A stretch of 64,000 nt of DNA from Patescibacteria group bacterium (GTDB taxonomy: Bacteria > Patescibacteriota > Patescibacteriia > UBA9934). The notes beneath the pieces were generated by a model. It was given only the letters and a program-made list of their open reading frames with translations. It was not told the DNA's origin and did no database searches. The position numbers and the translations under genes are program-made. This document shows positions 3,226-61,731 of the stretch, in pieces. How positions within the stretch are numbered: the first letter of the stretch is position 1; every line of letters begins with the position of its first letter. The stretch is from contig JBBTSM010000001.1 of the NCBI GenBank assembly GCA_038064675.1, positions 40,446-104,445 on the forward strand, written 5' to 3'.

Positions 3226-3984
3226 ATGACTTCTGATTCTATTGAGCTTCTCGGAAAACTTATTCTCGCTTTTCTTGCGTTATTTGGAGGAAAGGAGCTT
3301 TTTAATAAAATAATCTTTCAAAGGATCGAAAAGGGTGAGCGTATTGGTCGAGATAAGGTAGTTAACAATTACTACAATGTCTCGAGAGTCGGAGATCCTG
3401 ATCTGCTGCTAAGCGAATCGTCCGTCCCTTCGCGTGAACCGGTGTCTGGGGATGATGGTGACCTGGTCCCAGGTGCACTGAAAATTTTAGCAGATGCAGA
3501 CGGCTCTATCATTTTAGTATCGAGCGATATTGAAAAAGTGATCGACTTTTTTGAAAGGGTTTTTAAAGAGAACGGAAATTGGAGAAACGGTCACTGTTTG
3601 ATTATGGGCGCACTCTTTGCGCTAATTTCCCAGAGACATCGAAACCTTGAGTGGCAAGAACATTGCGCCAGCTCTCTCCGTGAACTTTTTCATCAGTGGA
3701 AGGGAAGTGAAGGTTTGATTGTTTCTGCTTTTACCAAAATAAGGCCAAAGGGGGCGAATAACTTTCCAACAGCAAAGAATGGTAGGGATCTGTATGCTAG
3801 GATGCGTTGGTACTATGAATTTTTCTCTTCGATATGTCATCATCACCATCCGGACGCTCTAGTGGCATTGAAATCCATTCGAGACGATAGGGAGATAAAA
3901 GATATATCCGACGATTTGTTTAACAAGACAGTGGCAATGTTTTTTTATGAGATGGTAGGATTCATTAGACTTACAGGAGTATGA
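3226..3984 (+). CDS. Hypothetical protein with an N-terminal hydrophobic helix; first gene of the AT-rich island
   Basis: ATG at 3226 (the track start at 3217 is TTG). No recognisable motifs. Its stop overlaps the next gene's start (ATGA at 3981-3984). GC is much lower than the flanks. Confidence 0.5.
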   Translation: MTSDSIELLGKLILAFLALFGGKELFNKIIFQRIEKGERIGRDKVVNNYYNVSRVGDPDLLLSESSVPSREPVSGDDGDLVPGALKILADADGSIILVSSDIEKVIDFFERVFKENGNWRNGHCLIMGALFALISQRHRNLEWQEHCASSLRELFHQWKGSEGLIVSAFTKIRPKGANNFPTAKNGRDLYARMRWYYEFFSSICHHHHPDALVALKSIRDDREIKDISDDLFNKTVAMFFYEMVGFIRLTGV

Positions 3985-6920
3985 AACAATTAGAATTACA
4001 TAACGCGATTGACGGGTTTTTCAGAAGCGATATCAAGCTAGCTAATCTTCAATTTGCGCAAAGTTTATTGCAGAATGAAGACTCGCGGCGTTATTTTTTC
4101 GACCAAGCCAATGAAGTATGGCTTCAATGGCTTTGGGATTTCGGATTTCTTGACGCGATTAAGGGAGGGGCGAATACCGCACCTAGAGGTGTATATCGGC
4201 TTCCCGAACTCGGCTACCTCGAGAAAATTTGTAAGATAAATCCGGTCGGAGTTTCAAAGATCATTGAATCGGTAGAGATTTCCGAAGACAATTGTAGTCC
4301 GGAAGTATTATTGAGTTTTTTAAGGATTATCGGGACTTTTCCGGTTGAACAAATTGTACCGCTCATCGATAAGATTCTATCGGAACGATGGGTTTATTTA
4401 ATGCGAGATTCAGATAGGTCGAGTTACGATTTTGAAGTGATTGTAAAAGTATTAGTGGAAAAGAAAGAGAGCGTTGGTTTGTTAAAGTTATCTCAAGCCC
4501 TTTTGACTTTAAAGGATGAGGACGATATACGAGCAAAAAACGGAGATTTTGGAAGAGACGATTTTTTCTGCGTCAAAGATATTGATGAGTCGGGTATTTT
4601 TAGTGCGCTTATTACTATTGATGAGCATTATTTAACTGCTGCACTTAAAGTTACTACGGATACCATGGCGGCTATCATTAAGATGTCAGAAGCAGATGAA
4701 GGGGGAGTCTTTGAGTATAAGGATGCATTTGGCTTATATGACGTTGATTTTTTTAATCTAGATTTTGAGGGTGGCCATACGGGCTCATATCGCGCGAATG
4801 AAAAAAACTTTGTTACAACTATAAAGGTTCTTGCCGAGAGTGAGATGAACAAGAAATCTACAGGCGACGAAGATAAGAGGTCTGTTCTTGATCTTATAGA
4901 TAATATTCCTTCGAGTCGTCTGGTGTGGAGATTGCGATTATTTGTGCTAGCGCAGCAACCTCTTTTGTTTAAGAGTGAACTTAAAGATTCGTTCTTTAGG
5001 TTGTTTGAAGGTAAAAATGATTACGATATAGAGGGTGGCGCAGAATACAAGCAAGCTTTAAAAATTTGTTTCCCCCTTTTAGACGAAGATGATCAACGGC
5101 TTTATGTTGCGAATGTCATAAATTATTTTGTAAAAAAAGCGAAAGATAATCCAGAACAGAAATGGCACAAACAAACCGGATATGAAATTCTTTCGACCGT
5201 TTTTGTTGATTTAAATGGAGCGGAGAAACAAAAGGCTGCAGAGGTTTTTGGAAAGGAATTAGATGCGGAATATGTTCCGGAGCCGTCAATCGGTCGAATG
5301 AGGTCCGGTACCGTCATATATCAAGCACCAGATGAATTAGAGAAATATACAATTAAAGAAATCATATCGAGATTAAAAACAAATTGGACGCCAGAAAGAT
5401 TATCTGAAGAGTTCAAGAGTGAAGATTATTTCCGGCCTAGAGGAGCCGAGGGGCTTTGCGAGTCTATAAAACAGGATGTAAAGAAGCGTACTGCTGACTA
5501 TCTCAATAATATTGAACTCTTCTTTGATCGTGAGAATATTCATCCTTCGTATATTCACTCATTGCTGCGCGGTATTGAAGAGATGCTCCGTAACGATCAG
5601 AGTCTTAGCTTTGAGCAAATCGAAAATGTATTTGGATTGTTCGGGCTGATAAAGATAAGTGGGGAGAGGGCGCCTTTTAAGGGTAGTGACGATAAGTCCT
5701 GGCTCGCAGATTGGATTGGGGTTCACAGTGTTGCTGTGGATGTTCTTCTTCACATTCTCAGAGATAAGACATACAGGGGGGAAAAGCATGAGGGTTCCCG
5801 TCCTTGGGTTCTTTCATTCCTTTCTTATCTCTTCACCGTTAATGGCAGCCCCTCAAGGGATGACGAAGGCCCTGAATCTAGTGAGCCGTATTCCGTCGCA
5901 ATCAATTCCGTACGAGGCAGGGCGTATGAGGCATTTGTTGTGTTGGTAGAGAACGACGGAAAGACACTAAGGGAAGATGTGAAGCCTGTATATCGAGCGA
6001 TACTTTGTGACGAATCCCTTGCGGTGAGGTTCGTCATTGGTCGCTATCTAGCCTCGTTTTATTTTCGTGACATTGATTTCGTTCGGGGTCTTTTTGCTGA
6101 AATCTTTCCTAAAGATGACTCAGAGAAAAAGGATATTTATCTCGCAAGTTGGGAGGGCTATCTTTCCAACGTTCTATACCAGAAGCTATTTATTGATCTC
6201 GGAAGCTTCTATGATCATGCGATAGCGCTGAGTCCCTCTGAATATACGAAGAGAAAATACTCAACCGGATTGGATGAGGCTCTAGGCGTGCATCTTGCGC
6301 TTGCATTTATCTACTTCGGGTTGGATATTGAAAATGATCCTTTGCTTGTTAAATTTTGGAGCATCGAGAATCCAAAAAGGCATCAGGAGTTTATATCGTT
6401 TATCGGTCGTACATGTTTGACTCAAGATGGTGCCGGGGACAGGTGGTTTAAAGAGAATAAGGTCGATAAAGAAAGACTGATAGCGTTTTGGAGCTGGGCG
6501 GTGGGGCATGTTACTGAGCCTGAAGCCTTGTCTGGTTTCGGTTTCTGGGTGAATCAGGATCACGAGATTCTGGATGACAGTTTTGTTGCAGAGAAGATGG
6601 CGGAGACACTCAAGAAATCAAATGGTGAAATAGATTGGGACTACGGTCTCTTGAGACGATTGCCGGCGCTTGCTGCAAAAAATAGTGATTCGACATTGGA
6701 GATCATTGAACATCTTCTGTTGGGTAACGATGGTAGGCTTAACCCAAATCGGCGTGTTCCATTCTTTAGTCTCGATGGAGAAATAAGAGAATCTCTTGGT
6801 GTAATTTATGACGGCAGTGATGCTGCAATGAAAGTAAGGGTTTCCGATCTGATTAGCAGACTTATTACAGAAGGTAGCAGCATGTTCTGGGGGTTGAAGG
6901 AGGTGATAAAGGAGGCTTAA
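3981..6920 (+). CDS. Large hypothetical protein (979 aa), predicted mostly alpha-helical, no recognisable catalytic motifs
   Basis: Long uninterrupted ORF with an AGGAG RBS at 3975-3979. Translationally coupled to the upstream gene. AT-rich codon usage unlike the surrounding genes. Confidence 0.6.
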   Translation: MKQLELHNAIDGFFRSDIKLANLQFAQSLLQNEDSRRYFFDQANEVWLQWLWDFGFLDAIKGGANTAPRGVYRLPELGYLEKICKINPVGVSKIIESVEISEDNCSPEVLLSFLRIIGTFPVEQIVPLIDKILSERWVYLMRDSDRSSYDFEVIVKVLVEKKESVGLLKLSQALLTLKDEDDIRAKNGDFGRDDFFCVKDIDESGIFSALITIDEHYLTAALKVTTDTMAAIIKMSEADEGGVFEYKDAFGLYDVDFFNLDFEGGHTGSYRANEKNFVTTIKVLAESEMNKKSTGDEDKRSVLDLIDNIPSSRLVWRLRLFVLAQQPLLFKSELKDSFFRLFEGKNDYDIEGGAEYKQALKICFPLLDEDDQRLYVANVINYFVKKAKDNPEQKWHKQTGYEILSTVFVDLNGAEKQKAAEVFGKELDAEYVPEPSIGRMRSGTVIYQAPDELEKYTIKEIISRLKTNWTPERLSEEFKSEDYFRPRGAEGLCESIKQDVKKRTADYLNNIELFFDRENIHPSYIHSLLRGIEEMLRNDQSLSFEQIENVFGLFGLIKISGERAPFKGSDDKSWLADWIGVHSVAVDVLLHILRDKTYRGEKHEGSRPWVLSFLSYLFTVNGSPSRDDEGPESSEPYSVAINSVRGRAYEAFVVLVENDGKTLREDVKPVYRAILCDESLAVRFVIGRYLASFYFRDIDFVRGLFAEIFPKDDSEKKDIYLASWEGYLSNVLYQKLFIDLGSFYDHAIALSPSEYTKRKYSTGLDEALGVHLALAFIYFGLDIENDPLLVKFWSIENPKRHQEFISFIGRTCLTQDGAGDRWFKENKVDKERLIAFWSWAVGHVTEPEALSGFGFWVNQDHEILDDSFVAEKMAETLKKSNGEIDWDYGLLRRLPALAAKNSDSTLEIIEHLLLGNDGRLNPNRRVPFFSLDGEIRESLGVIYDGSDAAMKVRVSDLISRLITEGSSMFWGLKEVIKEA

Positions 6921-7022
6921 TCGGAGGTTAAACCGGTCGCCCCTGCAGAGATGTAGAGCGATCAGTACCTATCCACCTTCCTCCTTGTCACCATACTGAA
7001 TGGGCTACATTATGAGGTATCT

Positions 7023-7379
7023 ATGGAAAGGAATATTGATTTAACGGGGGTCGCTAAGGATATCGTGGCGTTTCGGGATGAGAGAGATTGGAAGCAATTT
7101 CATAATTTGAAGGATTTGGCGATTTCGTTGGTGTTAGAAGCGGGGGAGGTACTTGAGCATTTTCAGTGGAAGAATGCGGAGGAAATGGCTGCACATGTGC
7201 AGTCGCATAAGGAGGATGTGGCGGATGAGCTTTCTGATACGCTGTATTGGATTTTGCTCATGGCAAATGATCTGAATATCGATCTTGTTGCTGCGTTGGA
7301 GAAGAAGATGGAAAAGAATCGCGCGAAGTATCCGGCGGATAAGGCGAAGGGGAACCATAAGAAATACACAGAACTTTAA
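7023..7379 (+). CDS. MazG-like nucleoside triphosphate pyrophosphohydrolase (small all-alpha NTP-PPase, COG1694-like)
   Basis: EAGEVLEHFQWK...ELSDTLYWILLMANDLNIDL matches the metal-binding EExxE/D helix pair of MazG-type NTP-PPases. Confidence 0.75.
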   Translation: MERNIDLTGVAKDIVAFRDERDWKQFHNLKDLAISLVLEAGEVLEHFQWKNAEEMAAHVQSHKEDVADELSDTLYWILLMANDLNIDLVAALEKKMEKNRAKYPADKAKGNHKKYTEL

Positions 7380-7381
7380 AT

Positions 7382-8938
7382 ATGTTAGACATTAAGACTT
7401 TTCCATTTTCAGAAAGCGGCATCCAGCAAATGCGAAAGTCGCCAAATGCAATCGATTGGCCGATTGTGTATTTGATTGAAAACGGGAAGGATTTATATGT
7501 TGGCGAGACAATTCACGCGAGCGCGCGAACAAAGCAGCATCTTGAAAACCCAGAACGTAAAACATTGAAAACGATTCATGTCATTTCTGATGATGAATTT
7601 AATAAATCAGCAACTCTAGATGCAGAATCTTCGCTCATAGAATACTTTGCGGCTGATGGAAAGTATTCTCTTCAGAATGGGAATGGTGGATTACAAAATC
7701 ACGACTATTTTGATCGTGAAAAATACCAAGCAAAGTTTGAGGTTCTTTGGGAGAAGTTGCGAGAAATGCATATTGCGCAACATAGTCTTTTTCATATCCG
7801 TAATACTGATCTTTTTAAATATTCTCCGTACAAAACGCTTACAGATGATCAATACTTCTTGGCAACGTATCTTCTCGCCGATCTGACTGCGGATGTTGAG
7901 CGGAGATATCTTATTCATGGTGGTCCTGGAACGGGGAAAACGATTCTTGCAATCTATATTGTTAAGCAGCTCGTCGAACAAGGAAAAAAGAATGTTGCAC
8001 TGGTCATTGCGATGACTTCGTTGCGGAATACGCTAAAGAAAGTTTTTCGAGCAGTTCCTGGCCTCCGGTCAGACATGGTCATTGGACCAAATGATGTAAC
8101 AAAGCGTCACTACGATACGTTGATTGTTGATGAAGCTCACAGGCTTCGTCGAAGGAGAAATATCCCAAATTATGCATCGTTTGATCAGACCAATAAGCGA
8201 TTTGGATTAGGTACTGAAGGAACAGAATTGGATTGGATTTCTCGTTCCGCAAAACAAGTCATTTTGTTTTTTGATGAAAATCAATCGGTTCGACCGTCAG
8301 ATATTCCTGTTGAAGTTATAAAGAGCTCAGCAGAGACGCATTTCCGTTTAAGCGCACAAATTCGAGTGCAGGGCGGAGAGGAGTACATACATTTTGTTGA
8401 TAATATTCTTGAGGTAAAGCCGGCGGAATATGTGCAGGTCGCAAAATATGATTTTCAAATTTTTGAAGATATTTCTGAGATGATTCGCGAGTTGAAAGAA
8501 AAGGAAAAGATTCACGGTCTTTGTCGATTGGTCGCTGGATATGCTTGGGAGTGGGTTTCTCGGGACGATGCTAAGACGCCGGATATCATAATTGGCAATA
8601 CGAAGCTTTTTTGGAATAGCACAATTCAGGACTGGGTAAACTCTCCAAATGCCATAAATGAAGTTGGATGCATCCACACAATTCAGGGATATGATTTAAA
8701 TTATGCGGGAGTGATCGTTGGACCAGAAGTAACGTTTGACGCATCACGTAATTGTATAGTGATTAAGAAAGAAGAATATCGTGATGCCAACGGGTATCGT
8801 GGAATCGTAGATCAAGAAGAATTAAAGCGATACATCATTAATATTTACAAAACATTATTGACTCGGGGGATTCTGGGAACGTATGTCTATATCGTTGACC
8901 CCGATCTTCGAAGGTACTTTCAATCCACCCTTCGATAA
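7382..8938 (+). CDS. GIY-YIG nuclease domain fused to a DUF2075-type (Schlafen-like) P-loop ATPase/helicase
   Basis: N-terminal VYLIENGKDLYVGET...R..H (GIY-YIG-like). Walker A GGPGTGKT and Walker B LIVDEAHRL. DUF2075-like C-terminal region. Starts 2 nt after the MazG-like stop. Confidence 0.7.
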   Translation: MLDIKTFPFSESGIQQMRKSPNAIDWPIVYLIENGKDLYVGETIHASARTKQHLENPERKTLKTIHVISDDEFNKSATLDAESSLIEYFAADGKYSLQNGNGGLQNHDYFDREKYQAKFEVLWEKLREMHIAQHSLFHIRNTDLFKYSPYKTLTDDQYFLATYLLADLTADVERRYLIHGGPGTGKTILAIYIVKQLVEQGKKNVALVIAMTSLRNTLKKVFRAVPGLRSDMVIGPNDVTKRHYDTLIVDEAHRLRRRRNIPNYASFDQTNKRFGLGTEGTELDWISRSAKQVILFFDENQSVRPSDIPVEVIKSSAETHFRLSAQIRVQGGEEYIHFVDNILEVKPAEYVQVAKYDFQIFEDISEMIRELKEKEKIHGLCRLVAGYAWEWVSRDDAKTPDIIIGNTKLFWNSTIQDWVNSPNAINEVGCIHTIQGYDLNYAGVIVGPEVTFDASRNCIVIKKEEYRDANGYRGIVDQEELKRYIINIYKTLLTRGILGTYVYIVDPDLRRYFQSTLR

Positions 8939-8953
8939 AACTATTTTTTTGAA

Positions 8954-9410
8954 TATGCCCATTGAAACCCCAAAATTGAATCCTGCAGAAGTGAAGGTTC
9001 CTGCTGTTGAGACAGAACCGGGTTCTCGGGTGATAACAATTGCCGTGCACGCAAGGGAGCAGAAAAAGCGAGAGGCGCTTGTGGAGGAAGGTGTTGTGAT
9101 TGTTGAGGAACCGGGAGCGTTGAGCCAGGAATTGGAGGATGCTCGGAGGGATCGTGAGGCGGCGGAAGCGAGGGAGCTTGCTCGGCGGGAAAAGTTTTTT
9201 GCGGATCTTGTTGCAAAGTTTCCGGAGCTGACGGATGTGCAGCGCAATGCGGTGCGTGCAACAATGGAACGGGAGAGCTCGCGAACGTGGTCTAATTATG
9301 ATGGCACGGATACCACGATTAAGCGTATTTCAATCGAGGGTGACGTGTTAACTATCGTGTTTGATATTGAGGAAATGGGTATGCGCATCGACGAAAAAGT
9401 TTGCTTCTAG
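8954..9410 (+). CDS. Hypothetical protein with a charged, coiled-coil-like middle region
   Basis: ORF with ATG at 8954. Its stop TAG is directly followed by the ATG of the next gene. Confidence 0.45.
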
Positions 9411-9965
9411 ATGCTTCACGCCGAGCATATCCCGTACGTTCTTCGTCGCAAGCGCTTTTCGCGGGTGCTGCGGTTTGCGGTACATGCGGATGGACGGTTG
9501 GTGGTTACAGCACCAGTTCTCATCGGGAAGCGCACCATCGAAAAGATGATTGCGGAGAAGAGGGAATGGATTTTGGAGAAACTCGAGATTGCAAGAAAGA
9601 ACGCGAAGCCGGTGGCGCCGAAGAGGACGAAGAAGGAGATCGCCGATGATAAAGATCGCGCATTGGCGTTGATTCGAGATCGGATCGAGCATTTCAACCT
9701 TGTGTATCGATTATCGTGGAAACGGATTGCAATACGGAATCAGAAGACGAGATGGGGGAGTTGTTCGCGGAAGGGGAATTTGAATTTCAATTATAAGATT
9801 GCATTGTTGCCGCCGCATCTTGCGGACTACATCATCGTTCACGAACTCTGCCACTTGGCGCAGATGAATCATTCGAAAAAGTTTTGGGAACTGGTTGCGC
9901 AGACCATTCCAGATTGGCGAGGTCGGCGAAATGAGATTCGGGAGCACGAGATTCGATTGCGATGA
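9411..9965 (+). CDS. DUF45/YgjP-family (SprT/WLM-like) zinc metallohydrolase
   Basis: HExxH motif IIVHELCHLAQMNHS near the C-terminus. The family is typically about 180 aa. Confidence 0.7.
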   Translation: MLHAEHIPYVLRRKRFSRVLRFAVHADGRLVVTAPVLIGKRTIEKMIAEKREWILEKLEIARKNAKPVAPKRTKKEIADDKDRALALIRDRIEHFNLVYRLSWKRIAIRNQKTRWGSCSRKGNLNFNYKIALLPPHLADYIIVHELCHLAQMNHSKKFWELVAQTIPDWRGRRNEIREHEIRLR

Positions 9966-10228: not shown

Positions 10229-12401
10229 GGTTCCCGTCCCCGATAATTTCGGATACACTTCCTTCGCTATGAAAGACTTTGTTCTCTCCAACCAGCACGC
10301 CTCGCCGAATCTTCATATTGACTATCAGGCGGAGTTGAATGAGGAGCAGTATCGCGTGGTTTCTGGCGGTGGTGGGCCGATGCTGGTACTTGCGGGTGCG
10401 GGGAGTGGAAAAACGAGAACCATTACCTATCGTGTGGCGTGGTTGCTCGAACACGGTACGCCAGTGGAGAACATGTTGTTGCTCACGTTTACGAACAAAG
10501 CGGCAAAAGAAATGATGGCGCGCGTGGAAGGATTGCTTCGCGCATATCCAACAGGATTGTGGTCTGGAACCTTTCACTCCATCGCAAACCGCATGTTGCG
10601 CATGTACGGCGCGTACACTGGCTTCGGGAGCGATTTTTCCATTTTGGACGAGGAAGATGCGAACGATTTGATGAAGATGTGTATCAAGGAGCTGAAGATC
10701 GACACGAAGGGGCGACGATTCCCGAGTGTTGGAGTGTTGCGCGGACTCTTGTCGTACGCCAACAACGCTCGTCGATCGCTTCAGTCGGTGCTGAACGACC
10801 GCGCAGAACATTTCGCGGGAATTCTTCACGAGGTGACGGCGGTTGCAGAGCGATACGCATCCGCAAAACGCACAGCGAAGGCGATGGACTTTGATGATCT
10901 CTTGCTCGAGCTCCTCAAGCTTCTTCGTGAAAACGAATCCGTTCGCACGCAATTGGCCAATCGTTTTCAATTCGTGCTCGTGGATGAGTTCCAGGACACG
11001 AACATTATTCAGTCCGACATCGTCGATCTTCTTTCGTCCGGCCATCGGAATCTTCTCGTTGTTGGCGACGACGCACAGAGTATTTACTCCTTCCGCGCCG
11101 CAGAAATTAGGAACATTCTTGATTTTCAGAAACGGTATCCGGATGCGCAATCGTATCGATTGGTGATGAATTATCGCTCCACGCCGGAGATTCTTGCGGT
11201 TGCGAACGCTGTCATCTCGAATAACAGCGAGCAGTTCGCGAAAGAACTGGTGTCGGCCAAGTCTTCTGGAGAAAAGCCAAACATTGTTCCGGCGAACGAT
11301 GCACGAGAAGAAGCGCAGTATGTTGTTGAACAGATTTTGAAGCTGATCGATGAGGGAATCGAGCTCCAGGGAATCGCGGTGCTGTTCCGTGCAGCGTTTC
11401 ACTCGCAAGCTCTGGAATTCGAGCTGATGAAGCGGGGGATTGCGTACGAATATCGTGGCGGAATGAAGTTTTTTGAACGCGCCCACATCAAGGATGCCGT
11501 TGCGCATCTTCGGCTGCTTCGAAACGGTCACGACCTTGTTGCATGGGCCAGAGCGCTGCAGATTCAACCTGGTCTTGGCATTACCACAAGCCAGAAGATT
11601 GCGGAAACGATGAGTCAGTACGACTCTGCCCGCGATGCCATTGAGGCGCCGATGAAACTTTCTCCTCGGGTACAGTCTGGATTTGCCGGAACACGATCGA
11701 TTCTCCGCATGATGTTTGCTGCACCGCTGCCGTCGGAGGCTGTGCGCGCATTTGCAAATCACGAATCGTACCGGCTGTATCTTGAAGCCGAATATCCGAA
11801 TGCGCGTGAACGGGTTGAAGACTTGGATCAGCTCGCGGTGTTTGCGGAGCAGTATCGCGATCTTGGTGCATTCTTAGACGCGATGACGTTGGCTGGCGAT
11901 TTCGCGGGAAGGATCGATGATGCGGAATCGGGAGCCCGTGAAGAGTCCGATCGAAACAAACTTATCTTGTCGACGATTCACCAGGCGAAGGGACTGGAGT
12001 GGGATGCGGTGTTCGTACTGCACTGTGCGCAAGGAACGTTCCCGAGTGATCGAAGCATGGGGCAGTCGCGGGAAATCGAAGAAGAGCGACGACTGTTCTA
12101 CGTTGCGGCGACGCGAGCGCGGTCGAAGCTATATTTCACGTATCCAATGACGACCGGGTATGAATCGGTTGAGCTTCGTCAGCAGTCCATGTTTCTTGAT
12201 GAGATTCCGTTCGGCATGGCGGAAACCGTGCGTTTACGTCGCGCAATGCCAGCTTGGAGCATGTCGTCGTCGTACAGTACGCCAACCTCGTCTCGCCATC
12301 GTGCGCACGACGAGTTTGAAGAGCCCACAATCGTTCTCGACGACATGGGGGAGAAAATGGTAAAAAAGAGTGCACCTGGTTCGTTTCTCGGCGATCATTA
12401 A
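10221..12401 (+). CDS. UvrD/PcrA-family SF1 DNA helicase (GTG start at 10221; alternative ATG at 10269)
   Basis: LNEEQYRVV...GPMLVLAGAGSGKT (Walker A), DEFQDT (Walker B) and typical UvrD motifs through VAATRAR. Confidence 0.9.
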   Translation: MAKVPVPDNFGYTSFAMKDFVLSNQHASPNLHIDYQAELNEEQYRVVSGGGGPMLVLAGAGSGKTRTITYRVAWLLEHGTPVENMLLLTFTNKAAKEMMARVEGLLRAYPTGLWSGTFHSIANRMLRMYGAYTGFGSDFSILDEEDANDLMKMCIKELKIDTKGRRFPSVGVLRGLLSYANNARRSLQSVLNDRAEHFAGILHEVTAVAERYASAKRTAKAMDFDDLLLELLKLLRENESVRTQLANRFQFVLVDEFQDTNIIQSDIVDLLSSGHRNLLVVGDDAQSIYSFRAAEIRNILDFQKRYPDAQSYRLVMNYRSTPEILAVANAVISNNSEQFAKELVSAKSSGEKPNIVPANDAREEAQYVVEQILKLIDEGIELQGIAVLFRAAFHSQALEFELMKRGIAYEYRGGMKFFERAHIKDAVAHLRLLRNGHDLVAWARALQIQPGLGITTSQKIAETMSQYDSARDAIEAPMKLSPRVQSGFAGTRSILRMMFAAPLPSEAVRAFANHESYRLYLEAEYPNARERVEDLDQLAVFAEQYRDLGAFLDAMTLAGDFAGRIDDAESGAREESDRNKLILSTIHQAKGLEWDAVFVLHCAQGTFPSDRSMGQSREIEEERRLFYVAATRARSKLYFTYPMTTGYESVELRQQSMFLDEIPFGMAETVRLRRAMPAWSMSSSYSTPTSSRHRAHDEFEEPTIVLDDMGEKMVKKSAPGSFLGDH

Positions 12402-12402
12402 T

Positions 12403-12659
12403 TTTTCCGTCATCCCCGCGTAGGCGGGGATCCAGTATCATTGCAAGCTGGTGGCTCGGATATACATTCTTTTGCACTCCGCGCGAATCCCCGACGCTGC
12501 AACGTCTCGTTTGCACTCGACTGCAGCTGAGGGGCGCGTGCTCGTTGGAAGAATGTATCCTCTCCACTGGCGCTCGCGATGTCAGTCTCACTCGCCCAAT
12601 TTGCTCAAGGGTAATCCCGATCGCCCAAGCGCAGCGATCGCTCATCTTTCCTCTCCACT
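12403..12659 (+). repeat. Modular intergenic repeat of about 257 bp, copy A: TTCCGTCAT + palindrome ATCCCCGCGTAGGCGGGGAT + conserved body + GGGTAATCCCGATCGCCC tail. It fills the whole uvrD / malic-enzyme spacer
   Basis: High identity along its full length to 18932-19202 and partly to 24052-24195. Confidence 0.85.
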
Positions 12660-17915: not shown

Positions 17916-18926
17916 ATGAACGAACGAAGGCATCGCGTGCGGGGGTTGCGCGAAGCTGTGGCATTTGCTGCGGTGTGTTTGGTGACGTTTGTGGCAATGA
18001 CGTGTATCGGTGTTGTTATTCTTTTTCGTCCTGGCGCAGACAAGCTTGGTGTGACGTTCTCGAGTTCGTATTCACAGGATTTGGATTTGGATCCCGAGGA
18101 GGTTTTTACGGCGCTCGTGAGCGACCTTGGTGCGAAACGTGTTCGCATTCCAGTGTATTGGAGCGATCAGGAAACTGCTCCCGGAGTGTACGATTTTTCT
18201 GCGCTGGATTCGTTGATGCGGATTGCTGATGCGCATGGGACAGAAGTGACGCTCGCTATTGGCATGAAGGTTCCACGGTGGCCGGAGTGTTACTTGCCAC
18301 TATTTGTGAACGGTATGAACGATGAGGAACTCAATGCAGCGGTGTATCGGTATGATCAGGCGTTGATTAGTTATGCAAAGACGTATCCTGCGTTGGCGCG
18401 TTGGCAGGTGGAAAATGAGCCATTGTTCCCATATGGCAATTGTCCAAGGCCGTCGCTTGAACGTCTCACACGCGAGGTTTCTTTAGTTCGTGCGCTCGAT
18501 ACCGCACATCCCGTTATGCTGACTGTGAGCGGCGAACAAGAGCCATGGCTTGATGTATCCAGCATCGCAGACACGATTGGGGTAAGTATGTATCGGTTTG
18601 CGTACAACGACGTGCTTGGCGCTGTCGCGTTTCCGTACGGCCCGCTGTACTACCGTGTTCACGCCATCATTACCAAGTTTTTCGCGAAGGATGTGATTAT
18701 TTCTGAGCTGCAAATGGAGCCGTGGTTTACCGACGATCCACAAAAGCCGGAATCGATGGTTGTTCCGTTTACCGTCGACGATTTCGTTGATCACATGGAT
18801 TTTGTGAAACGAACGGGAATCCACGAAGTGTTGCTTTGGGGTGCGGAGTGGTGGTATTACCAGAAGGTTCATGGTGATCCTTCGCTCTGGAATATTGCAA
18901 AACAGACGTTCTCTGAGTCGAAATAA
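17916..18926 (+). CDS. Membrane-anchored glycoside hydrolase, GH5/clan GH-A-like
   Basis: N-terminal TM helix. Acid/base motif VENEP. Nucleophile motif IISELQ (ITE-like). Confidence 0.6.
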   Translation: MNERRHRVRGLREAVAFAAVCLVTFVAMTCIGVVILFRPGADKLGVTFSSSYSQDLDLDPEEVFTALVSDLGAKRVRIPVYWSDQETAPGVYDFSALDSLMRIADAHGTEVTLAIGMKVPRWPECYLPLFVNGMNDEELNAAVYRYDQALISYAKTYPALARWQVENEPLFPYGNCPRPSLERLTREVSLVRALDTAHPVMLTVSGEQEPWLDVSSIADTIGVSMYRFAYNDVLGAVAFPYGPLYYRVHAIITKFFAKDVIISELQMEPWFTDDPQKPESMVVPFTVDDFVDHMDFVKRTGIHEVLLWGAEWWYYQKVHGDPSLWNIAKQTFSESK

Positions 18927-18931
18927 TATTC

Positions 18932-19202
18932 TTCCGTCATCACTTTTCCTTAGTCATCCCCGCGCAGGCGGGGATCCAGAATTCATCGCGAGCTGGTGGC
19001 TCGGGTACATGTTTCTTCACTGTGCGTGAACGCCATCACGCCGTAACGTCTCGCTTGCGCTCGACTACTGCTGGATGGGTGCACTGCTCGTCGCGAAACA
19101 CGCACCCTCGCCACTGGCGATCGCGATATTCATCTCACTCGCTCAATTCGCTCAAGGGTAATCCCGATCGCCCGCGCGTAGCGCTCGCTCATCCATCTTT
19201 CT
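18932..19202 (+). repeat. Modular intergenic repeat of about 270 bp, copy B (TTCCGTCAT ... GTCATCCCCGCGCAGGCGGGGATCCAG ... GGGTAATCCCGATCGCCC); fills the GH5 / trmH spacer
   Basis: Aligns with 12403-12659 along its length. Begins 6 nt after a stop and ends at the next start codon. Confidence 0.85.
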
Positions 19203-19880: not shown

Positions 19881-21057
19881 TGTTTTGCAGCAGCATGGCG
19901 CTGCGCGACGGGGCACCTTGAATACCATGCACGGCGTCGTAGAAACGCCGGTGTTTATGCCGATCGCCACGGCTGGTGCGTTAAAGACGTTGTTGCCAAG
20001 CGAGGTGACGAATCTTGGCGCGTCGATTATTTTGGGGAACACGTATCACCTTTTGCTTCGCCCGGGCGAAGAGGAATTGAAGAAGCTCGGCGGCGTTCGA
20101 TCATTTATGCATTGGGACGGTCCGTTGCTGACGGATAGTGGGGGATACCAAGTGTTTAGTTTGTCCAAGTTGAATAAGACAGACGACGATGGCGTAACGT
20201 TTCAGTCACATATCGACGGGAGTTCGCATCGGCTTACTGCGGAACGATCGATGGAAATTCAAGATGCAATTGGTTCGTCCATTCGCATGCAGTTCGACGA
20301 CGTCGCGGCAGGAAATTCGACTCGCGATCGGTACACGGAAGCGATGGAACGATCGCTCCGTTGGGCCGCGCGATCGAAGGCAAAATTTAATGAACTTGTT
20401 TCCACGACAACCCTCCCCCTTACGAAGGGGGAGTTGGAGGGGGTCCGACCATTACTCTTTGGCATCATCCAAGGTGGCACACACCTCGATCTTCGCGCGC
20501 GATCGCTTCAGGGCCTTACTGATATCGGCTTTGATGGATACGCGATTGGCGGACTTTCTGTTGGCGAATCGCGTGAGGACGCATTTCGTATTGTGCGATC
20601 GTTGGCAAAAGAAATGCCAACGGATCGGCCACGATATTTTATGGGCGGTGGAATGCCAGAAGAAATTGTTGCGTATGTTTCGTTTGGTGTGGACATGTTC
20701 GATTGTGTGTTGCCTACACGCAACGCTCGGCACGGATCGTTGTTTGTCTGGAAGGGAAATCCAAAGGATGCAGTTCGCGAGGCGTTTACTCGGGCAATGG
20801 ACGGCGCGGCAGATTTTCGTATCGCGGAAGCGTTGTACGAAAAGATCCAAATCACGAACGAACGATTTACTGCCGACGAAACACCGATTGATTTCTGGAA
20901 TGACGCTGAAACGTCAAAAACGTTTTCTCGGGCGTATCTGCGTCATCTTTTTAAAACCGGTGAAACGCTCGGACTTCGGCTGGCAACACTGCAAAATCTG
21001 GGCTTTTATCTGAGAATGATGGAGGAACTTCGTGAATGCACAGCGAATCCCTTGTGA
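19852..21057 (+). CDS. tgt: Queuine tRNA-ribosyltransferase carrying a roughly 15-aa in-frame insertion (TTLPLTKGELEGVRP)
   Basis: Aligns with E. coli Tgt from GVVETPVFMP through MFDCVLPTRNARHG. The insertion sits before the FGIIQGG block, where E. coli has only GNKNA. Confidence 0.9.
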   Translation: MNAPSKSPFSVLQQHGAARRGTLNTMHGVVETPVFMPIATAGALKTLLPSEVTNLGASIILGNTYHLLLRPGEEELKKLGGVRSFMHWDGPLLTDSGGYQVFSLSKLNKTDDDGVTFQSHIDGSSHRLTAERSMEIQDAIGSSIRMQFDDVAAGNSTRDRYTEAMERSLRWAARSKAKFNELVSTTTLPLTKGELEGVRPLLFGIIQGGTHLDLRARSLQGLTDIGFDGYAIGGLSVGESREDAFRIVRSLAKEMPTDRPRYFMGGGMPEEIVAYVSFGVDMFDCVLPTRNARHGSLFVWKGNPKDAVREAFTRAMDGAADFRIAEALYEKIQITNERFTADETPIDFWNDAETSKTFSRAYLRHLFKTGETLGLRLATLQNLGFYLRMMEELRECTANPL

Positions 21058-23994: not shown

Positions 23995-24051
23995 AAATTC
24001 CTCAGAATCAAAGCGAGCTCGAAAGGGCTCGTTTTGATTTGGTAACCTTTA

Positions 24052-24195
24052 CATCGCGAGCTGGTGGCTCGGATACATTCTTCTGCACTCCGCGCGAATC
24101 CCCTACGCTGCGACGTCTCGCTGATGCTCGACTGCAGCTGTGGGGCGGCGTGCTCGTTGGAAGAATGTATCCTCACCACTGGCGTTCGCGATGAC
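24052..24195 (+). repeat. Modular intergenic repeat, partial copy C (central body only); downstream of secF
   Basis: CATCGCGAGCTGGTGGCTCGGATACATTCTT...GTGCTCGTTGGAAGAATGTATCCTC.CCACTGGCG.TCGCGATG is collinear with 12436-12590. Confidence 0.8.
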
Positions 24196-24374
24196 TCGGT
24201 TCGACTTGGAGCGGCGTGCTATAATTCAACGGACAGGACTTCCTTATTTGAGGCTAGTTTCGATGAACGAGGAGCAAAGATCGCGAGGCGTACTTCACGG
24301 TACGTTGAGCGATTTTGCGACGAAGTGAGTCGAAAATAGACCAAATGAGGAAGTGCTAAAGGACTTTATCGCCT

Positions 24375-29589: not shown

Positions 29590-30033
29590 ATGACCGACGA
29601 CGAAAAAATCCAGCTTGGCGCGGTGCTCGAAATCGTCCAGTCCATGCAGAAGACCATGGTCGCAATGCAGGATGATATTGGGGCAATTCAGGGCGTTATG
29701 GCCACGAAGGATGATCTCAAGAATTTCGCCACGAAAGATGACCTTAAGAATTTTGCTACGAAAGGCGACCTTAAGAATTTTGCCACGAAGGATGACGTTA
29801 CTGATATTCGGGGCGATATTGCGGCCATTAAGGAAGATGTTGAGTTCCTTAAAGACAGTGTGGCTACGAAGGATGATCTCGGCAGTCTCAAATCCGAGGT
29901 TTTCGAACACATCGATGGCTTTGCGCAGCAGAACCAGAAGTTCGATATCGAGTTGGTTGCGGCAAGGTCCCAGTTCAATCGGGTAGAAGAACGTGTGGAG
30001 GTTTTAGAATTGAAAGCGGGGATTGGGGCGTAA
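29590..30033 (+). CDS. Small coiled-coil protein with 9-aa tandem repeats (ATKDDLKNF x3+)
   Basis: ORF with three and a half perfect 27-bp DNA repeats at 29701-29808. Confidence 0.5.
   Translation: MTDDEKIQLGAVLEIVQSMQKTMVAMQDDIGAIQGVMATKDDLKNFATKDDLKNFATKGDLKNFATKDDVTDIRGDIAAIKEDVEFLKDSVATKDDLGSLKSEVFEHIDGFAQQNQKFDIELVAARSQFNRVEERVEVLELKAGIGA
29701..29808 (+). repeat. 27-bp in-frame tandem repeat (3.5 units)
   Basis: GCCACGAAGGATGATCTCAAGAATTTC / GCCACGAAAGATGACCTTAAGAATTTT / GCTACGAAAGGCGACCTTAAGAATTTT / partial unit. Confidence 0.9.
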
Positions 30034-53779: not shown

Positions 53780-53820
53780 TTGACACTTTTTTGTTAGCAC
53801 TCTATACTACCGAGTGCTAA
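53780..53820 (+). promoter_or_regulatory. hrcA promoter (TTGACA-17-TATACT) overlapping a perfect CIRCE operator (TTAGCACTC-N9-GAGTGCTAA at 53794-53820)
   Basis: Exact CIRCE consensus with a 9-nt spacer containing the -10 hexamer, 20 nt upstream of hrcA. Confidence 0.9.
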
Positions 53821-53839: not shown

Positions 53840-54535
53840 ATGAACACGCGTCAATCTCATATTTTACAGCTCGTGGTGGACGAATACGTCCGGACGGCTG
53901 AGCCAGTCAGTTCCCAGGCTCTTTGCGCTGGGTTCGATCTGGATTGTTCTCCGGCCACGGTCCGAAACGACATGATGGCGCTGGAAGAAGAAGGGCATTT
54001 GTATCAACCCCACACGTCATCTGGCAGAGTTCCCACGGAAGAAGGCTATCGGTACTACCTAGCCAACGTGGTGCAAGCCAAGCAGCCGAAGGTCGCTACC
54101 GAGCTCCGAAGCGCGATGGAGGAGATTCGATCGCTTGAATCGAAAATCCAATTCCTCGGGCGCCGACTTGCCGATCTTTCCGGGGATGCCGTCATCGTCA
54201 CCAATGAACATCAAACGTCGGCCCTCGGCGTGGCAAACCTTCTGCGAAAGCCGGATTTCAAGGAGGACAACATGCTCCTCGCGTTGGCCGAAGACATCGA
54301 GCGCCTTGAGCGCGATGCCACCAGCGTGATGAACGTTGCCCCGAGCGAGGTCCGAATCCTTCTCGGCGAAGAAAGCCCCATGGGCAAACGCCTCGCCACC
54401 GTCATCGTCCGCCACCAGTTACCAAACGGCGAAATCGGCGTCCTCAGTATCGTAGGTCCTCTGCGAATGAACTACGCAAGAAACGTTGCTCTCCTTTCCG
54501 AAGCAAAAAGAATTTTAGAAGAAAATGATTTGTAA
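53840..54535 (+). CDS. hrcA: Heat-inducible transcription repressor HrcA (short form)
   Basis: N-terminal wHTH ILQLVVDEYVRTAEPVSSQAL. Sits in the CIRCE/dnaK operon context. Confidence 0.85.
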   Translation: MNTRQSHILQLVVDEYVRTAEPVSSQALCAGFDLDCSPATVRNDMMALEEEGHLYQPHTSSGRVPTEEGYRYYLANVVQAKQPKVATELRSAMEEIRSLESKIQFLGRRLADLSGDAVIVTNEHQTSALGVANLLRKPDFKEDNMLLALAEDIERLERDATSVMNVAPSEVRILLGEESPMGKRLATVIVRHQLPNGEIGVLSIVGPLRMNYARNVALLSEAKRILEENDL

Positions 54536-54538
54536 ATT

Positions 54539-55114
54539 ATGACGGACGAAGAATTGAAAGACGAAGAGGGCAAAGGGCAGGGGGCAGAGGAATCCGTCAT
54601 CCCAAATGACTCTGGTCATCCCCGCGCAGGCGGGGATCCATCATCGGACCTCGAAGCTCTCCAGCAGAAATGCGCCGAATACCTTCACGGCTGGAAGCGT
54701 GCCCTCGCAGACTACGAAAATCTGCAAAAGCAAAACTCCAGCGCTCGTGACGACGACCGCCGACGCGTTCGATCGAATTTGGCGGAGGATCTGCTCCCCG
54801 TCGTCGACAACTTCGGCTACGTCACCAAGCACGTCCCCGACATCACCGCTTGTCCCGACGACTTTAAGAAAAAGTTCGACACCTGGTTCCAAGGCATCGG
54901 CCACATCGAACGCCAATTCGCGGAAGCGATGAAGAACATGGGAGTTGAGGCGATCCCAAGTGTCGGAACCATCTTCGACCCAAACCTCCACGAAAGTGGT
55001 GGCTCACGATCGGAGCCTGGAAAGAAAGAACACGAGATCATCGAGGAACTCATCAAAGGCTGGAAGATCGGTGACGTCGTGTTGCGACCTGCAAAAGTAA
55101 TCGTTAATGAATAA
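54539..55114 (+). CDS. grpE: Nucleotide exchange factor GrpE (N-terminal region contains a palindromic repeat unit in frame)
   Basis: Coiled-coil plus a C-terminal beta domain. Lies upstream of dnaK. Confidence 0.85.
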
Positions 55115-55118
55115 TTCT

Positions 55119-57023
55119 ATGTCAAAGATCCTCGGAATCGATTTAGGGACAACAAACTCGTGTGTGGCAATTATGGAAGGCGGACAGCCGAAGGTGTTGG
55201 AGAATAAGGAGGGAATGCGAACCACGCCATCCATTATCGCGGTTGCGAAGAATGGGGAGCGACTTGTTGGACAGCCAGCAAAGCGACAGGCGGTGACGAA
55301 CCCGAAGAATACGTTGTACTCGATTAAGCGATTGATCGGTCGACGGTTTAGTGATGAGGAAGTTCAGCGCGATATTAAGTTGATGCCGTTTGCGATTGTT
55401 GCTCGCGGCGAGGGAATCGCGATCAAGATGGGCGATAAGGATTTTTCGCCACAAGAAATCGCGGCGATGGTGCTTGGAAAATTGAAAGCAGATGCAGAAG
55501 AGAAGCTCGGTGAGAAGGTTTCCGAGGCTGTCATTACTGTTCCTGCGTACTTCGACGACGCGCAGCGTCAGGCAACCAAGGATGCTGGTGAAATCGCCGG
55601 TCTCAAGGTGCTTCGCATTATCAACGAGCCAACGGCTGCTGCGCTTGCGTACGGTTTTGATAAGAAAGTTGGACAGAAAATCGTTGTGTACGATCTTGGT
55701 GGAGGAACGTTCGATGTGTCCGTGCTCGACGTGAGCGAAGGAACCGTTGAGGTGCTCGCAACCAACGGCGATACGCATCTTGGAGGCGATGACTTCGATC
55801 TGACGATCATGAAGTGGATTCTTGATGAGTTTAAGAAGCTCGAAGGAATTGATCTTTCTGGTGACGCACTCGCAATGCAGCGTATTAAGGACGCGGCAGA
55901 GCGCGCAAAGATTGAGTTGTCGACTGCGCAGACCACCGAAATCAACCAGCCGTTTATTACGTCTGGTGCTGAAGGGCCGAAGCACTTGGTGATGAGCCTT
56001 TCACGCGCAAAGCTGGAGGAACTTGTTGGCGGACTCGTCGATAAAACGATGGAGCCAGTGAAGAAAGCGCTTGCAGATGCAAAGATGGATGCAAAGAGCA
56101 TCGGCGAAATCGTTATGGTCGGTGGTATGACTCGCATGCCACTCGTCCTTACAAAGGTTGAAGCATTCTTTGGCAAGAAGCCAAACGTAACGGTGAATCC
56201 AGATGAAGTGGTTGCTGTCGGAGCTGCGGTTCAGGCTGGTGTGATGCAAGGCGATGTGAAGGATGTGCTTCTTCTCGATGTTGCACCGCTCTCCCTTGGA
56301 ATCGAAACCATGGGAAGCGTGTTCACGAAACTCATCGATCGCAACACCACCATCCCGACCAGCAAGTCGCAGGTGTTCTCGACCGCGGCAGATAATCAGC
56401 CAGCCGTCACGATTCGCGTTGGCCAGGGTGAGCGCCCAATGTTTAACGACAACAAAGTGCTTGGTCAGTTCGATCTTTCCGGCATTCCACCAGCACCACG
56501 TGGCGTTCCGCAGATTGAAGTGAAGTTCGATATTGATGCGAACGGCATTCTGCACGTGTCGGCGACCGACAAGGCAAGCGGAAAAGCGCAGACGATCACG
56601 ATCACCTCATCGAGCGGTCTCTCGAAAGAGGAAATCGAAAAGATGAAGGCGGATGCAGAAAGTCACGCTACCGAGGATAAGCAGAAGCAGGAGTTGATCG
56701 AGGCGCGTAACATCGCTGATACCATGGTATACACCGTGGAGAAGATGCTCGTCGATAATAAAGAGAAAGTTTCTGAAGAAGACAAGAAAATTCTCGAGGA
56801 AAAGATGGAAGCCGTGAAGAAGGTAAAGGACACGGACGATCTTGCAGCGATCAAAGCTGCTGGAGACGATCTTTCGAAAGAGGCTCAGCGTGTTGGTGGT
56901 GCGATGTACGCGAAGGACGACGCTGCGAAGAATGCAGAAGCTGGTGCAGCACCAGAAGCAGAATCGACGGCGAAAGATGCAGAATTCACGGAGAAGAAAG
57001 ATGACGATGCAGCACAAAGCTAA
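55119..57023 (+). CDS. dnaK: Chaperone DnaK (Hsp70)
   Basis: [25 protein letters not shown] and the C-terminal lid. Start set at MSKIL. Confidence 0.97.
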
Positions 57024-60084: not shown

Positions 60085-61731
60085 ATGGCCGAAACGCTTT
60101 ACCGAAAATACCGTCCACAGTGCTTTGCGGATGTTGCGGAACAGGAGCACGTTTTACGAACAATTCAGCAGCAGTTGGCAAAGAATACGGTTGCACATGC
60201 GTATCTGTTTTCTGGTCCACGCGGGACGGGAAAAACGACTATCGCCCGATTGCTCGCGAAGGCGCTCAACTGCGAGAACCGCAAGGCGGGGGAGTCGGAG
60301 CCGTGTAACACGTGTTCCTCGTGTACCGACTTTGCGTCGGGCAGATTCATGTCGTGCATCGAGATCGACGCCGCATCGCAAACTGGCGTCGACAATGTTC
60401 GCGATAACATCATCGAGAACGCGCGCTTCGCTCCAAGCCGCGGGTCGTTCAAGGTATTTATTCTCGACGAAGTTCACATGCTTTCCGGTTCGTCATTCAA
60501 CGCGTTATTGAAGACGCTCGAAGAACCGCCGGCACATGCTATTTTCATTCTCGCAACAACCGAGCTTCATAAAATCCCCGCAACCATCGCGTCACGCTGC
60601 CAGCGTTTCGAGTTTCATCGCGTGCCGCCAGTAGTGATGATGCCGCGCCTGAAGAAGATTTCGGAAGCCGAGGGCTTCACGATCGACGACGATGTTCTTG
60701 CGCAGATTGCTCGCTTGAGTGAGGGCTGTTTGCGCGACGCAGAAAGTTTGCTCGGGCAAGTGCTCGCGCTGGGTGAAAAGAACGTCACACTCGCGGTGGC
60801 CTCGTTGGTATTGCCGATGACGAATATTGCCGTTGTTACCGATATCGTCGATGCAGTTGCGGTGAATGATGCGCAAAAGGCGCTGAAAATTGTCGGAACA
60901 TTTGTTGCTGACGGGGGTTCGATAAAACATCTCATCGAAGAGCTTCTTGAATACGTTCGTACGGTGATGTTCGCCGCATTCGGCGACACCACGATGGATG
61001 CGTACGACACGAAGACCGTTGAGCGATTGCGCGCAGCGGGATCGGTATTCGGAGTTTCTCGATCTCAAATGTTCCTCGACGCGCTGTTGTCCGCAAGAAC
61101 GCGATCGAGCTTGCCGGCAATCCCGCAGATCCCACTTGAGATTGCGATTTTGGATGTGTGTTCACCTCCCCCCGACCCCCTCCTTCGAAAGGAGGGGGAG
61201 AGGTCGGCGACATCGCTCCCCCTTACGAAGGGGGAGTCGGAGGGGGTGAAGAGAGCGATTGCCGCTCCCGCCGCCCGAGTGATTCCTGTCCTTCCTCCGT
61301 CACGTGTCATCGAAGAGCCAGCCACCCCAGACGCACCGATTCGATACGACTTTGCACCAATTCAGCAAATGGAATCTGTTGTTGCGGATCAGCCGTCGGG
61401 ATTAGCAGAAGCGCCAATCTTTCCCCTCGAGGAAATCGTGAACAAATGGGAACGGTGTATCGCGATCATCGCAGAAGACAACGTGGCACTTCCGCTCGTT
61501 CTTCGTGGCGCTGTTCCGGTGAAGGTTGAAGGATCGGTGGTGACGATTTCCTGTGCGTACGCGTTTCACGCCGATGCATTGAAAGAAGCAAAAGCAAGAA
61601 CGCTCGTTGAAGATGCGATTGAAAAAGTATTGCAACAGCGCGTAACAATCGTTTCCGTTCATGTTCCCGTAAAAGAAACGAGCGACGCAGTAACAGACTT
61701 CGTCAGTCAGCTCGGCGGGTCTCTTGCATAA
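60085..61731 (+). CDS. dnaX: DNA polymerase III subunit gamma/tau, with two palindromic repeat units inserted in frame in the linker after domain III
   Basis: AHAYLFSGPRGTGKTT, zinc module CxxC...C, ILDEVHMLS and SRCQRF motifs. Insertion SPPPDPLLRKEGERSATSLPLTKGESEGV at 61165-61248. Confidence 0.9.
   Translation: MAETLYRKYRPQCFADVAEQEHVLRTIQQQLAKNTVAHAYLFSGPRGTGKTTIARLLAKALNCENRKAGESEPCNTCSSCTDFASGRFMSCIEIDAASQTGVDNVRDNIIENARFAPSRGSFKVFILDEVHMLSGSSFNALLKTLEEPPAHAIFILATTELHKIPATIASRCQRFEFHRVPPVVMMPRLKKISEAEGFTIDDDVLAQIARLSEGCLRDAESLLGQVLALGEKNVTLAVASLVLPMTNIAVVTDIVDAVAVNDAQKALKIVGTFVADGGSIKHLIEELLEYVRTVMFAAFGDTTMDAYDTKTVERLRAAGSVFGVSRSQMFLDALLSARTRSSLPAIPQIPLEIAILDVCSPPPDPLLRKEGERSATSLPLTKGESEGVKRAIAAPAARVIPVLPPSRVIEEPATPDAPIRYDFAPIQQMESVVADQPSGLAEAPIFPLEEIVNKWERCIAIIAEDNVALPLVLRGAVPVKVEGSVVTISCAYAFHADALKEAKARTLVEDAIEKVLQQRVTIVSVHVPVKETSDAVTDFVSQLGGSLA

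Follow-up and report, generated by a model that had tools for sequence, protein, structure and literature searches.

The palindromic unit that lies in frame within grpE in the stretch of Patescibacteria DNA analyzed here (64 kb at its full length, hereafter the window) is very probably a CGTC-1-type repetitive extragenic palindrome (REP), a member of the family that includes dRS3 of Neisseria and RPE-6 of Rickettsia conorii. With this assignment a false CRISPR lead is disposed of, and the element takes its place in a repeat family already described, of which in-frame intragenic copies, many of them at protein N-termini, are known as well (PMC3733652). What goes beyond the known picture is that the core of the repeat is frozen within a fast-evolving grpE gene and that the GrpE tail is a hotspot for hairpins.

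The complete grpE unit comprises 27 nt (54614 to 54640, + strand) and, following the anatomy given for CGTC-1 REPs (PMC3733652), is divided into the tag GGTC (54614-54617), the 5′ arm ATCCCCGC (54618-54625), the loop GCAG (54626-54629), the 3′ arm GCGGGGAT (54630-54637) and the tail CCA (54638-54640). The earlier note on this DNA had described a palindrome with an 8-bp stem and a GCAG loop at 54615-54640, and the letters at these positions, the 26-mer GTCATCCCCGCGCAGGCGGGGATCCA of the + strand within grpE, agree with that description. It had also reported an identical unit at 18953-18979 and a unit with one substitution at 12407-12434. The identity and the substitution (in the loop, GCAG to GTAG) both hold, but the ranges were one and two bases off, respectively: the exact copy occupies 18953-18978 and the substituted copy 12409-12434. 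These three are the only matches in the window with three or fewer mismatches to the 26-mer, as compared with 0.00 expected from 100 dinucleotide shuffles. The 8-bp stem, ATCCCCGC/GCGGGGAT, with its 4-nt loop is perfect in all three copies, and the RNA hairpin of the grpE copy has a predicted folding energy of −17.7 kcal/mol.

Both of the other copies are intergenic CGTC-1 REPs on the + strand. The first (12408..12435) reads CGTC/ATCCCCGC/GTAG/GCGGGGAT/CCAG and starts 6 nt past the end (stop codon at 12399-12401) of a gene for a UvrD-like helicase; the second (18952..18979) reads AGTC/ATCCCCGC/GCAG/GCGGGGAT/CCAG and starts 25 nt past the stop of the ORF at 17916-18926. The two copies are positioned just past stop codons, as is typical of REPs, and their hairpin probably acts there on the 3′ end of the transcript. 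They are not intrinsic terminators, since no T-run follows the hairpins; a terminator scan called none of the three copies, and a T-run is missing behind the grpE copy as well. The three copies, all on the same strand, are spaced 6.5 and 35.7 kb apart, and the 64-kb window holds neither an array nor any REP dimer or inverted doublet among them, which bears out the earlier description of each copy as solitary. The density is low, with three REPs per 64 kb in the window and none or one in two 20-kb regions of relatives, and contrasts with that of classic genomes rich in REPs; the relative L253 carries three further copies past dnaK, two of which form a divergent pair with a spacing of 68 nt.

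CGTC-tagged REPs were defined by Di Nocera, De Gregorio and Rocco in 2013, who equated CGTC-1 with Neisseria dRS3 and R. conorii RPE-6 (PMC3733652). Units of family 1 have an unpaired CGTC tag (often TGTC, and CCTC too), an 8-bp stem in which the first pairs are A-T and then T-A, a 4-nt loop and a CCA tail, and they are mostly extragenic, near the 3′ ends of ORFs, and often arranged as dimers (PMC3733652). The dRS3 sequence, ATTCCC-N8-GGGAAT, is the border repeat of the Neisseria intergenic mosaic elements (NIMEs) and the sequence into which Nf prophages integrate (PMC1797815), and ATTCCCGCGCAGGCGGGAATC, which occurs 241 times in N. meningitidis, has been presented as a REP/REPIN master sequence (Bertels and Rainey, bioRxiv 10.1101/2021.07.10.451892). 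The window copies have each part of this anatomy. Their tags are CGTC (12408-12411), AGTC (18952-18955) and GGTC (54614-54617), with GTC invariant; the first two stem pairs are A-T and T-A in all three; the loop is 4 nt long, GCAG twice and GTAG once; and CCA follows the stem in every copy, with G as the next base in both intergenic ones. The GGTC tag of the grpE copy is unusual, the other orthologues having AGTC or AGCC.

The same architecture was seen when IMG/VR viral contigs were scanned with YCCCGCGNAGGCGGGRATCC alone specified. Among the 146 unique matches listed, the unspecified 5′ flank was conserved as GTCAT (92-99%), and position −6 was C in 57% and T in 36%, the tags being CGTC in 75, TGTC in 51, GGTC in three and AGTC in two. 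On the 3′ side of ATCC, the same matches had A at +1 (86%) and G at +2 (79%), with random sequence farther out. Their stem closing pair covaries (T-A in 112, C-G in 33, T-G in one, C-A in none), and the second base of their loop is free (GCAG in 65, GAAG in 64, GGAG in nine, GTAG in eight). The family unit comprises a 4-nt 5′ tag, (C/T)GTC, a stem of 8 bp opening with AT, the 4-nt loop GNAG and a CCA tail. When one genome per species was scanned for the C-variant 26-mer, any second loop base being allowed (GTCATCCCCGCGNAGGCGGGGATCCA), at least 120 matches were obtained; the 26-mer is carried by cultivable bacteria such as Sphingomonas or Lysobacter, and the matches listed belong to Alpha-, Beta-, Gamma- and Deltaproteobacteria, Planctomycetota, Chloroflexota, Gemmatimonadota, Cloacimonadota, Omnitrophota and Rhodothermota. 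The hairpin family is near-identical across bacterial phyla, and CGTC-1, in essentially the same 26-29-nt sequence, reaches a reduced-genome lineage of Patescibacteria and several phyla beyond the five of 2013. Elsewhere in the family, 60 convergent pairs were counted among 357 copies, with a spacing of 44-94 nt being common. Rfam at gathering thresholds reported only one tRNA in the 64-kb window, permissive Rfam searches gave only chance-level matches, and a full-text literature search for the peptides encoded by the repeat yielded no match. In AT-rich viral contigs (L033, L038, L067, L069, L071, L092, L093 and L102), the T-variant unit is often followed, after 5-25 nt, by a Shine-Dalgarno sequence and ATG; the CCAGGAGG tail runs into the ribosome-binding site at these loci, which hints at a role at the 5′ ends of downstream cistrons.

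The host gene, grpE (54539..55114, + strand), encodes a protein of 191 aa in which the Pfam GrpE domain (9.7e-33) spans residues 35-190; among its matches that bear a name, the closest are patescibacterial. The gene lies between hrcA (53840-54535, upstream) and dnaK (55107-57023, downstream). The unit had been placed in frame in the GrpE N-terminus, and this was confirmed: it corresponds to codons 26-34 (G26-H-P-R-A-G-G-D-P34), directly before the Pfam domain, in a tail that is highly variable in both length and sequence among 120 homologues. Its 27 nt make up nine codons, and all three forward frames are without a stop. Because the MTDE start is kept in GrpE homologues, the unit is translated; a translation start downstream of the unit is unlikely, given this conservation and the fact that the next in-frame ATG is found only at codon 132. 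Just upstream of hrcA, at 53780-53820, a strong sigma-70-like promoter (TTGACA-17-TATACT, matching at 11 of 12 positions) and a perfect CIRCE operator, TTAGCACTC-N9-GAGTGCTAA, overlap each other, and the hrcA-grpE-dnaK operon is therefore under classical HrcA/CIRCE control. A reading of the grpE hairpin itself as a CIRCE operator was rejected, the real CIRCE being the one upstream of hrcA.

The intragenic position of this REP allows the neutral rate to be measured beside the repeat. We aligned 33 GrpE homologues, used DNA from 11 orthologues together with metagenome loci, and viewed presence of the unit across 120 homologues. The motif HPR[A/E/V]GGDP with homologous flanks was found in eight carriers, namely the window and seven other orthologues that share the site (P0001, P0002, P0005, P0007, P0075, L253 and L254). 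The unit is missing from most of the 120 homologues, and P0008, with 86% core identity, is also without the hairpin. Counted from the start, the His of HPR is encoded by codon 24 in P0075, codon 27 in the window and codon 53 in P0005, and lies far later in L253. In the seven full-length carriers, only one of 39 columns of four-fold sites in the grpE core is invariant, with a pairwise divergence of 0.36-0.70, whereas the four-fold codons of the hairpin (CCC CGC GGC GGG CCA) are invariant at five of five. Within the 21-nt core, CCCCGC-GNAG-GCGGGG-ATCCA, variation is confined to the loop N, where C, A or T gives Ala, Glu or Val, and this base is also the one that varies in the REP family as a whole. 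The tag region, in contrast to the core, drifts synonymously among the carriers (GGT CAT, AGT CAT, AGC CAC).

An invariant core next to a drifting tag speaks for an old insertion whose core is constrained as nucleic acid, and against selection at the protein level. Self-correction within the palindrome is not the whole explanation, because the unpaired tail is conserved as well. The strong synonymous conservation is also a poor fit to an insertion that is purely neutral and tolerated. Set against the almost saturated four-fold sites of grpE, the frozen core of the repeat argues that CGTC REPs are actively maintained and are not decaying relics.

The sequence of events was probably as follows. 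The unit would have entered grpE once, in the ancestor of a sub-clade, and would have survived because it preserved the reading frame (27 nt, three open forward frames) and because the hypervariable tail tolerates insertions. The stem-loop-tail core has probably been kept unchanged since then by a force that acts on the nucleotides and not on the protein, be it a factor that maintains the REP family and recognizes the hairpin as DNA or RNA, or repeated homogenization. A more specific proposal, which we regard as possible but doubtful, is that purifying selection acts directly on the 21-nt core of the grpE REP as a nucleic-acid element and that the GrpE tail is a landing pad at which unrelated hairpin families are repeatedly swapped. 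If this is true, purifying selection on the core implies a conserved hairpin-recognizing factor or a role at the RNA level, and an essential chaperone gene would serve as a natural reporter for the upkeep and movement of the pan-bacterial, transposase-less CGTC REPs.

The GrpE tail carries more than one kind of hairpin. Four close relatives (P0003, P0004, P0006 and P0009) have a different hairpin, of the form CCCCCTCCTTTCGAAGGAGGGGG (type B), at the site where the CGTC-1 unit (type A) is found, and this marks the tail as a hotspot of hairpin turnover. P0003, of type B, nests with the window, P0001 and P0002, all of type A, with 100% bootstrap, and the deeper P0005 and P0007 are again of type A. 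Hairpin type is thus at odds with the gene tree, which calls for two or more replacements, or else for recombination confined to the tail. In L261 (2460-2546), the GrpE tail is very short and keeps GAG GAT CCA TCA, the REP tail and its flank, with the stem-loop gone; this remnant is apparently the deletion scar of a hairpin. No clean empty site that would give the borders of the insertion was found, since the tail is too variable and L261 is a deletion scar. With at least two unrelated hairpin families at one GrpE site in very close relatives, together with a scar of loss, the site is a tractable system of gain, loss and replacement. Peptides typical of further palindromic repeats (IGGGPIPR, GVGSRESGV, PPFMEG) are seen in the GrpE tails of the wider clade, and in the grpE tail of P0002 (L005, 796-826) the sequence AGTCATCCTGAGCATAGCGAAGGATCTCC, upstream of the CGTC-1 unit, looks like a member of another GTCAT-headed hairpin family.

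The type B family is present in the window as well, at 20405-20444 and 61208-61247. These positions fall within stretches of tgt (20405-20444) and dnaX (61170-61247) where a second palindromic family, CTCCCCCTTACGAAGGGGGAG and CCCCCTCCTTCGAAAGGAGGGGG, was observed. Its copy in tgt is in frame (LPLTKGELEGV), as are two copies in the linker of dnaX (SPPPDPLLRKEGERS, LPLTKGESEGV); the 91%-identical orthologue in L001 is without the dnaX inserts. Taken together, the inserts in grpE, tgt and dnaX indicate that in-frame hairpin inserts are recurrent in the source genome.

One could envision that the hairpin is instead a selected cis-acting element of the hrcA-grpE-dnaK heat-shock operon, an RNA or DNA structure early in grpE that affects mRNA processing, stability or translation and for which any stable hairpin would suffice. 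The synonymous invariance of the core in a near-saturated gene, the presence of another stable hairpin at the same position in close relatives with a type that does not track the gene tree, and the otherwise classical regulation of the operon from a sigma-70-like promoter and a perfect CIRCE would all be accommodated by this explanation. Nevertheless, we consider it improbable. Most homologues, including P0008, manage without the hairpin, and L261 has lost it; the distance of the hairpin from the start codon varies from codon 24 to codon 53 and is greater still in L253; and in-frame hairpin repeats are also found in dnaX and tgt of the same genome. Moreover, in unrelated contexts across phyla the unit shows the same degree of conservation, so that the constraint belongs to the family and not to grpE.

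Our best guess as to the spread of CGTC REPs is that they may be mobilized in trans, as single-stranded hairpins, by an HUH/Y1 (RAYT-like) transposase. The 2013 survey recorded no dedicated transposase and no RAYT flanked by CGTC units (PMC3733652), and Bertels and Rainey (bioRxiv 10.1101/2021.07.10.451892) classed the Neisseria repeat as a REPIN of a Group 2 RAYT. Pfam scans of the 53 ORFs of the 64-kb window detected no transposase domain. A tblastn search with E. coli RayT and a scan for the HUH...Y motif found nothing credible in the 2 Mb around about 355 family members, which is a weak test, covering at most ~8-15 kb per copy. A genome typically holds about one RAYT, so that a search limited to such short flanks is uninformative.

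The view that the unit is no mobile or structural repeat of its own, and is retained because an integrating element attaches to it or targets it, is highly improbable; an example of such an element would be an IS110/Piv-type recombinase of the kind associated with Neisseria filamentous prophages. Nf prophages do integrate into dRS3 by means of a phage-encoded transposase (PMC1797815), and six viral loci among our matches carry IS110-like ORFs, which in L008, L064 and L066 are no more than a few hundred nt from the motif. Neither the window nor any of the 120 C-variant genome loci listed, however, yielded an IS110-like gene; a target-site role leaves the multiplication of the unit and its siting after stop codons unexplained; and a target site inside an essential gene would be lethal. 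IS110/Piv was rejected as a general explanation, the association being confined to the six Nf-prophage-like viral loci.

That the unit is an orphan or degenerate repeat of CRISPR type I-E, left over from an array or acting as a Cas6e decoy, has a negligible probability. The I-E-like architecture pointed out in the earlier note is real as far as the stem is concerned, but CRISPR is the wrong reference class, because all of the features fit a CGTC-1 REP. The repeat of E. coli K-12, GAGTTCCCCGCGCCAGCGGGGATAAACCG, taken from the genome, has a 7-bp stem, TCCCCGC/GCGGGGA, and a 4-nt loop, so that the stem and the loop length are shared, and in our own alignment 20 of 28 bases are identical to the unit. 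Rfam also gives a faint match to CRISPR-DR28, the best among its CRISPR models; its score of 17.6 bits against a gathering score of 35, with E = 6.5, is nevertheless at chance level. The I-E 3′ handle, ATAAACCG, is missing, with CCATCATC following the stem where E. coli has AAACCG; the conserved flanks (the YGTC tag and the CCAG tail) belong to CGTC REPs; the loop sequence is also unlike that of I-E repeats; and the T-A variant, commoner in the family, departs from the I-E stem. Nowhere in the 64-kb window is there an array with unique spacers of ~32 nt, and neither Pfam scans of its 53 ORFs nor a PADLOC scan of ten detected a Cas domain.

A CRISPR-like array in L133 (Rhodopseudomonas pentothenatexigens), the one regular array encountered outside the window, was rejected as such. 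Six C-variant units lie 309-314 nt apart at 5846-7310, with one 195-nt gap that holds Ns, and each 310-nt unit contains one REP and an inverted variant partner. The array is a tandem duplication of the 310-nt unit, with copies 81-85% identical and no unique spacers.

Upstream of the full unit in grpE is a half-unit, CGTCATCCC (54595..54603, + strand), that consists of the tag and the start of the 5′ arm; the GTCAT of this half-unit (54596) precedes that of the full unit (54615) by 19 nt. A similar half-head, CGTCATCAC, at 18935-18943 precedes the REP copy at 18952..18979. In ~25 of 355 family members (~7%), from many unrelated phyla, such a half-unit (GTCATYCCCGC) precedes the full unit by 16-22 nt, and among the same members none was ever seen downstream at that spacing. 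Examples are found in L014, L022, L088, L137, L143 and L187. The half-unit could be a footprint of the mechanism by which the unit is inserted or duplicated, or it could offer the 3′ arm an alternative partner for pairing.

Several other repeats were observed in the window. Both intergenic REP copies run on into a rod-like repeat of ~150 nt, a long imperfect rod found at 12436-12592, 18981-19139 and 24049-24204 in copies that are 74-89% identical. It lies directly behind a CGTC-1 REP in two of the three cases, the third being without a REP; 6-7 compensatory pair changes occur among the three copies, no Rfam match was obtained, and the repeat may be a MITE or a structured RNA. Two of the rods are followed by a module of 55-60 nt (12593-12650 and 19140-19193, 89% identical) that ends in the hairpin CGATCGC-N9-GCGATCG and contains GGGTAATCCCGA, a sequence also present in a repeat at 852-892. 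The latter belongs to another CGTC-tagged repeat, CCGTCATTGCGAGGAGGGTAATCCCGACGCGGCAATCYAG, which is located past stop codons at 852-892, 2087-2127 and 2134-2178 (the last on the − strand) and forms one convergent doublet, between the YceG and TerC genes; L001 has the same doublet between grpE and dnaK (10605-10645 and 10658-10702, the second on the − strand). Tandem repeats of 27 nt (29662-29889, five copies, 70-85% identical), just past a methyltransferase gene, probably encode a 9-residue repeat. The stretch from 3981 to 9965 is low in GC (0.41-0.46 versus ~0.52 elsewhere) and is possibly a defence island; its genes encode a protein of 979 aa whose Dsr1-like match is weak, as well as a Schlafen/Nhi/AbiO-like helicase and a YgjP-like metallopeptidase.

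Among known systems, type I-E CRISPR repeats are alike in the 7-bp TCCCCGC/GCGGGGA stem and the tetraloop, but the array, the spacers, the cas genes and the 3′ handle are absent here. The RAYT-mobilized REPs and REPINs with a GTAG tag resemble the unit in being short GC-rich hairpins with a conserved unpaired 5′ tetranucleotide, and convergent doublets are common elsewhere in the CGTC-1 family. Their tag, however, is GTAG and not CGTC, and they form lineage-specific populations, whereas the present family is near-identical across phyla.

The Rickettsia palindromic elements (RPE-1 and others) are known as "selfish DNA in protein-coding genes". Like them, the grpE unit is a palindrome that is in frame in a housekeeping gene, free of stops, translated, and missing from orthologues (P0008, P0010-P0042 and others), and the placement is again at a surface or linker, with grpE, dnaX and tgt carrying the inserts here. 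The difference is one of size and host: RPE-1 units are ~100-150 bp long and reside in an obligate intracellular alphaproteobacterium, as opposed to 27 nt in another type of host.

The CGTC-1 REPs differ from the window copies in that the latter are of the C-G variant (ATCCCC...GGGGAT), few in number and singlets instead of dimers or clusters, and in that they belong to a Patescibacteria host, a phylum outside the five listed in 2013, with a GGTC tag in grpE. The tag, the AT-initiated 8-bp stem, the 4-nt loop and the CCA tail are shared; the two intergenic copies are just past stop codons; in-frame intragenic sites, often near N-termini, are documented for the family; and the association with other repeat modules, a REP followed by a rod repeat, recalls the Neisseria NIME mosaics. 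Finally, the T-A variant recovered in our scans fits the dRS3 sequence, ATTCCC-N8-GGGAAT, exactly.
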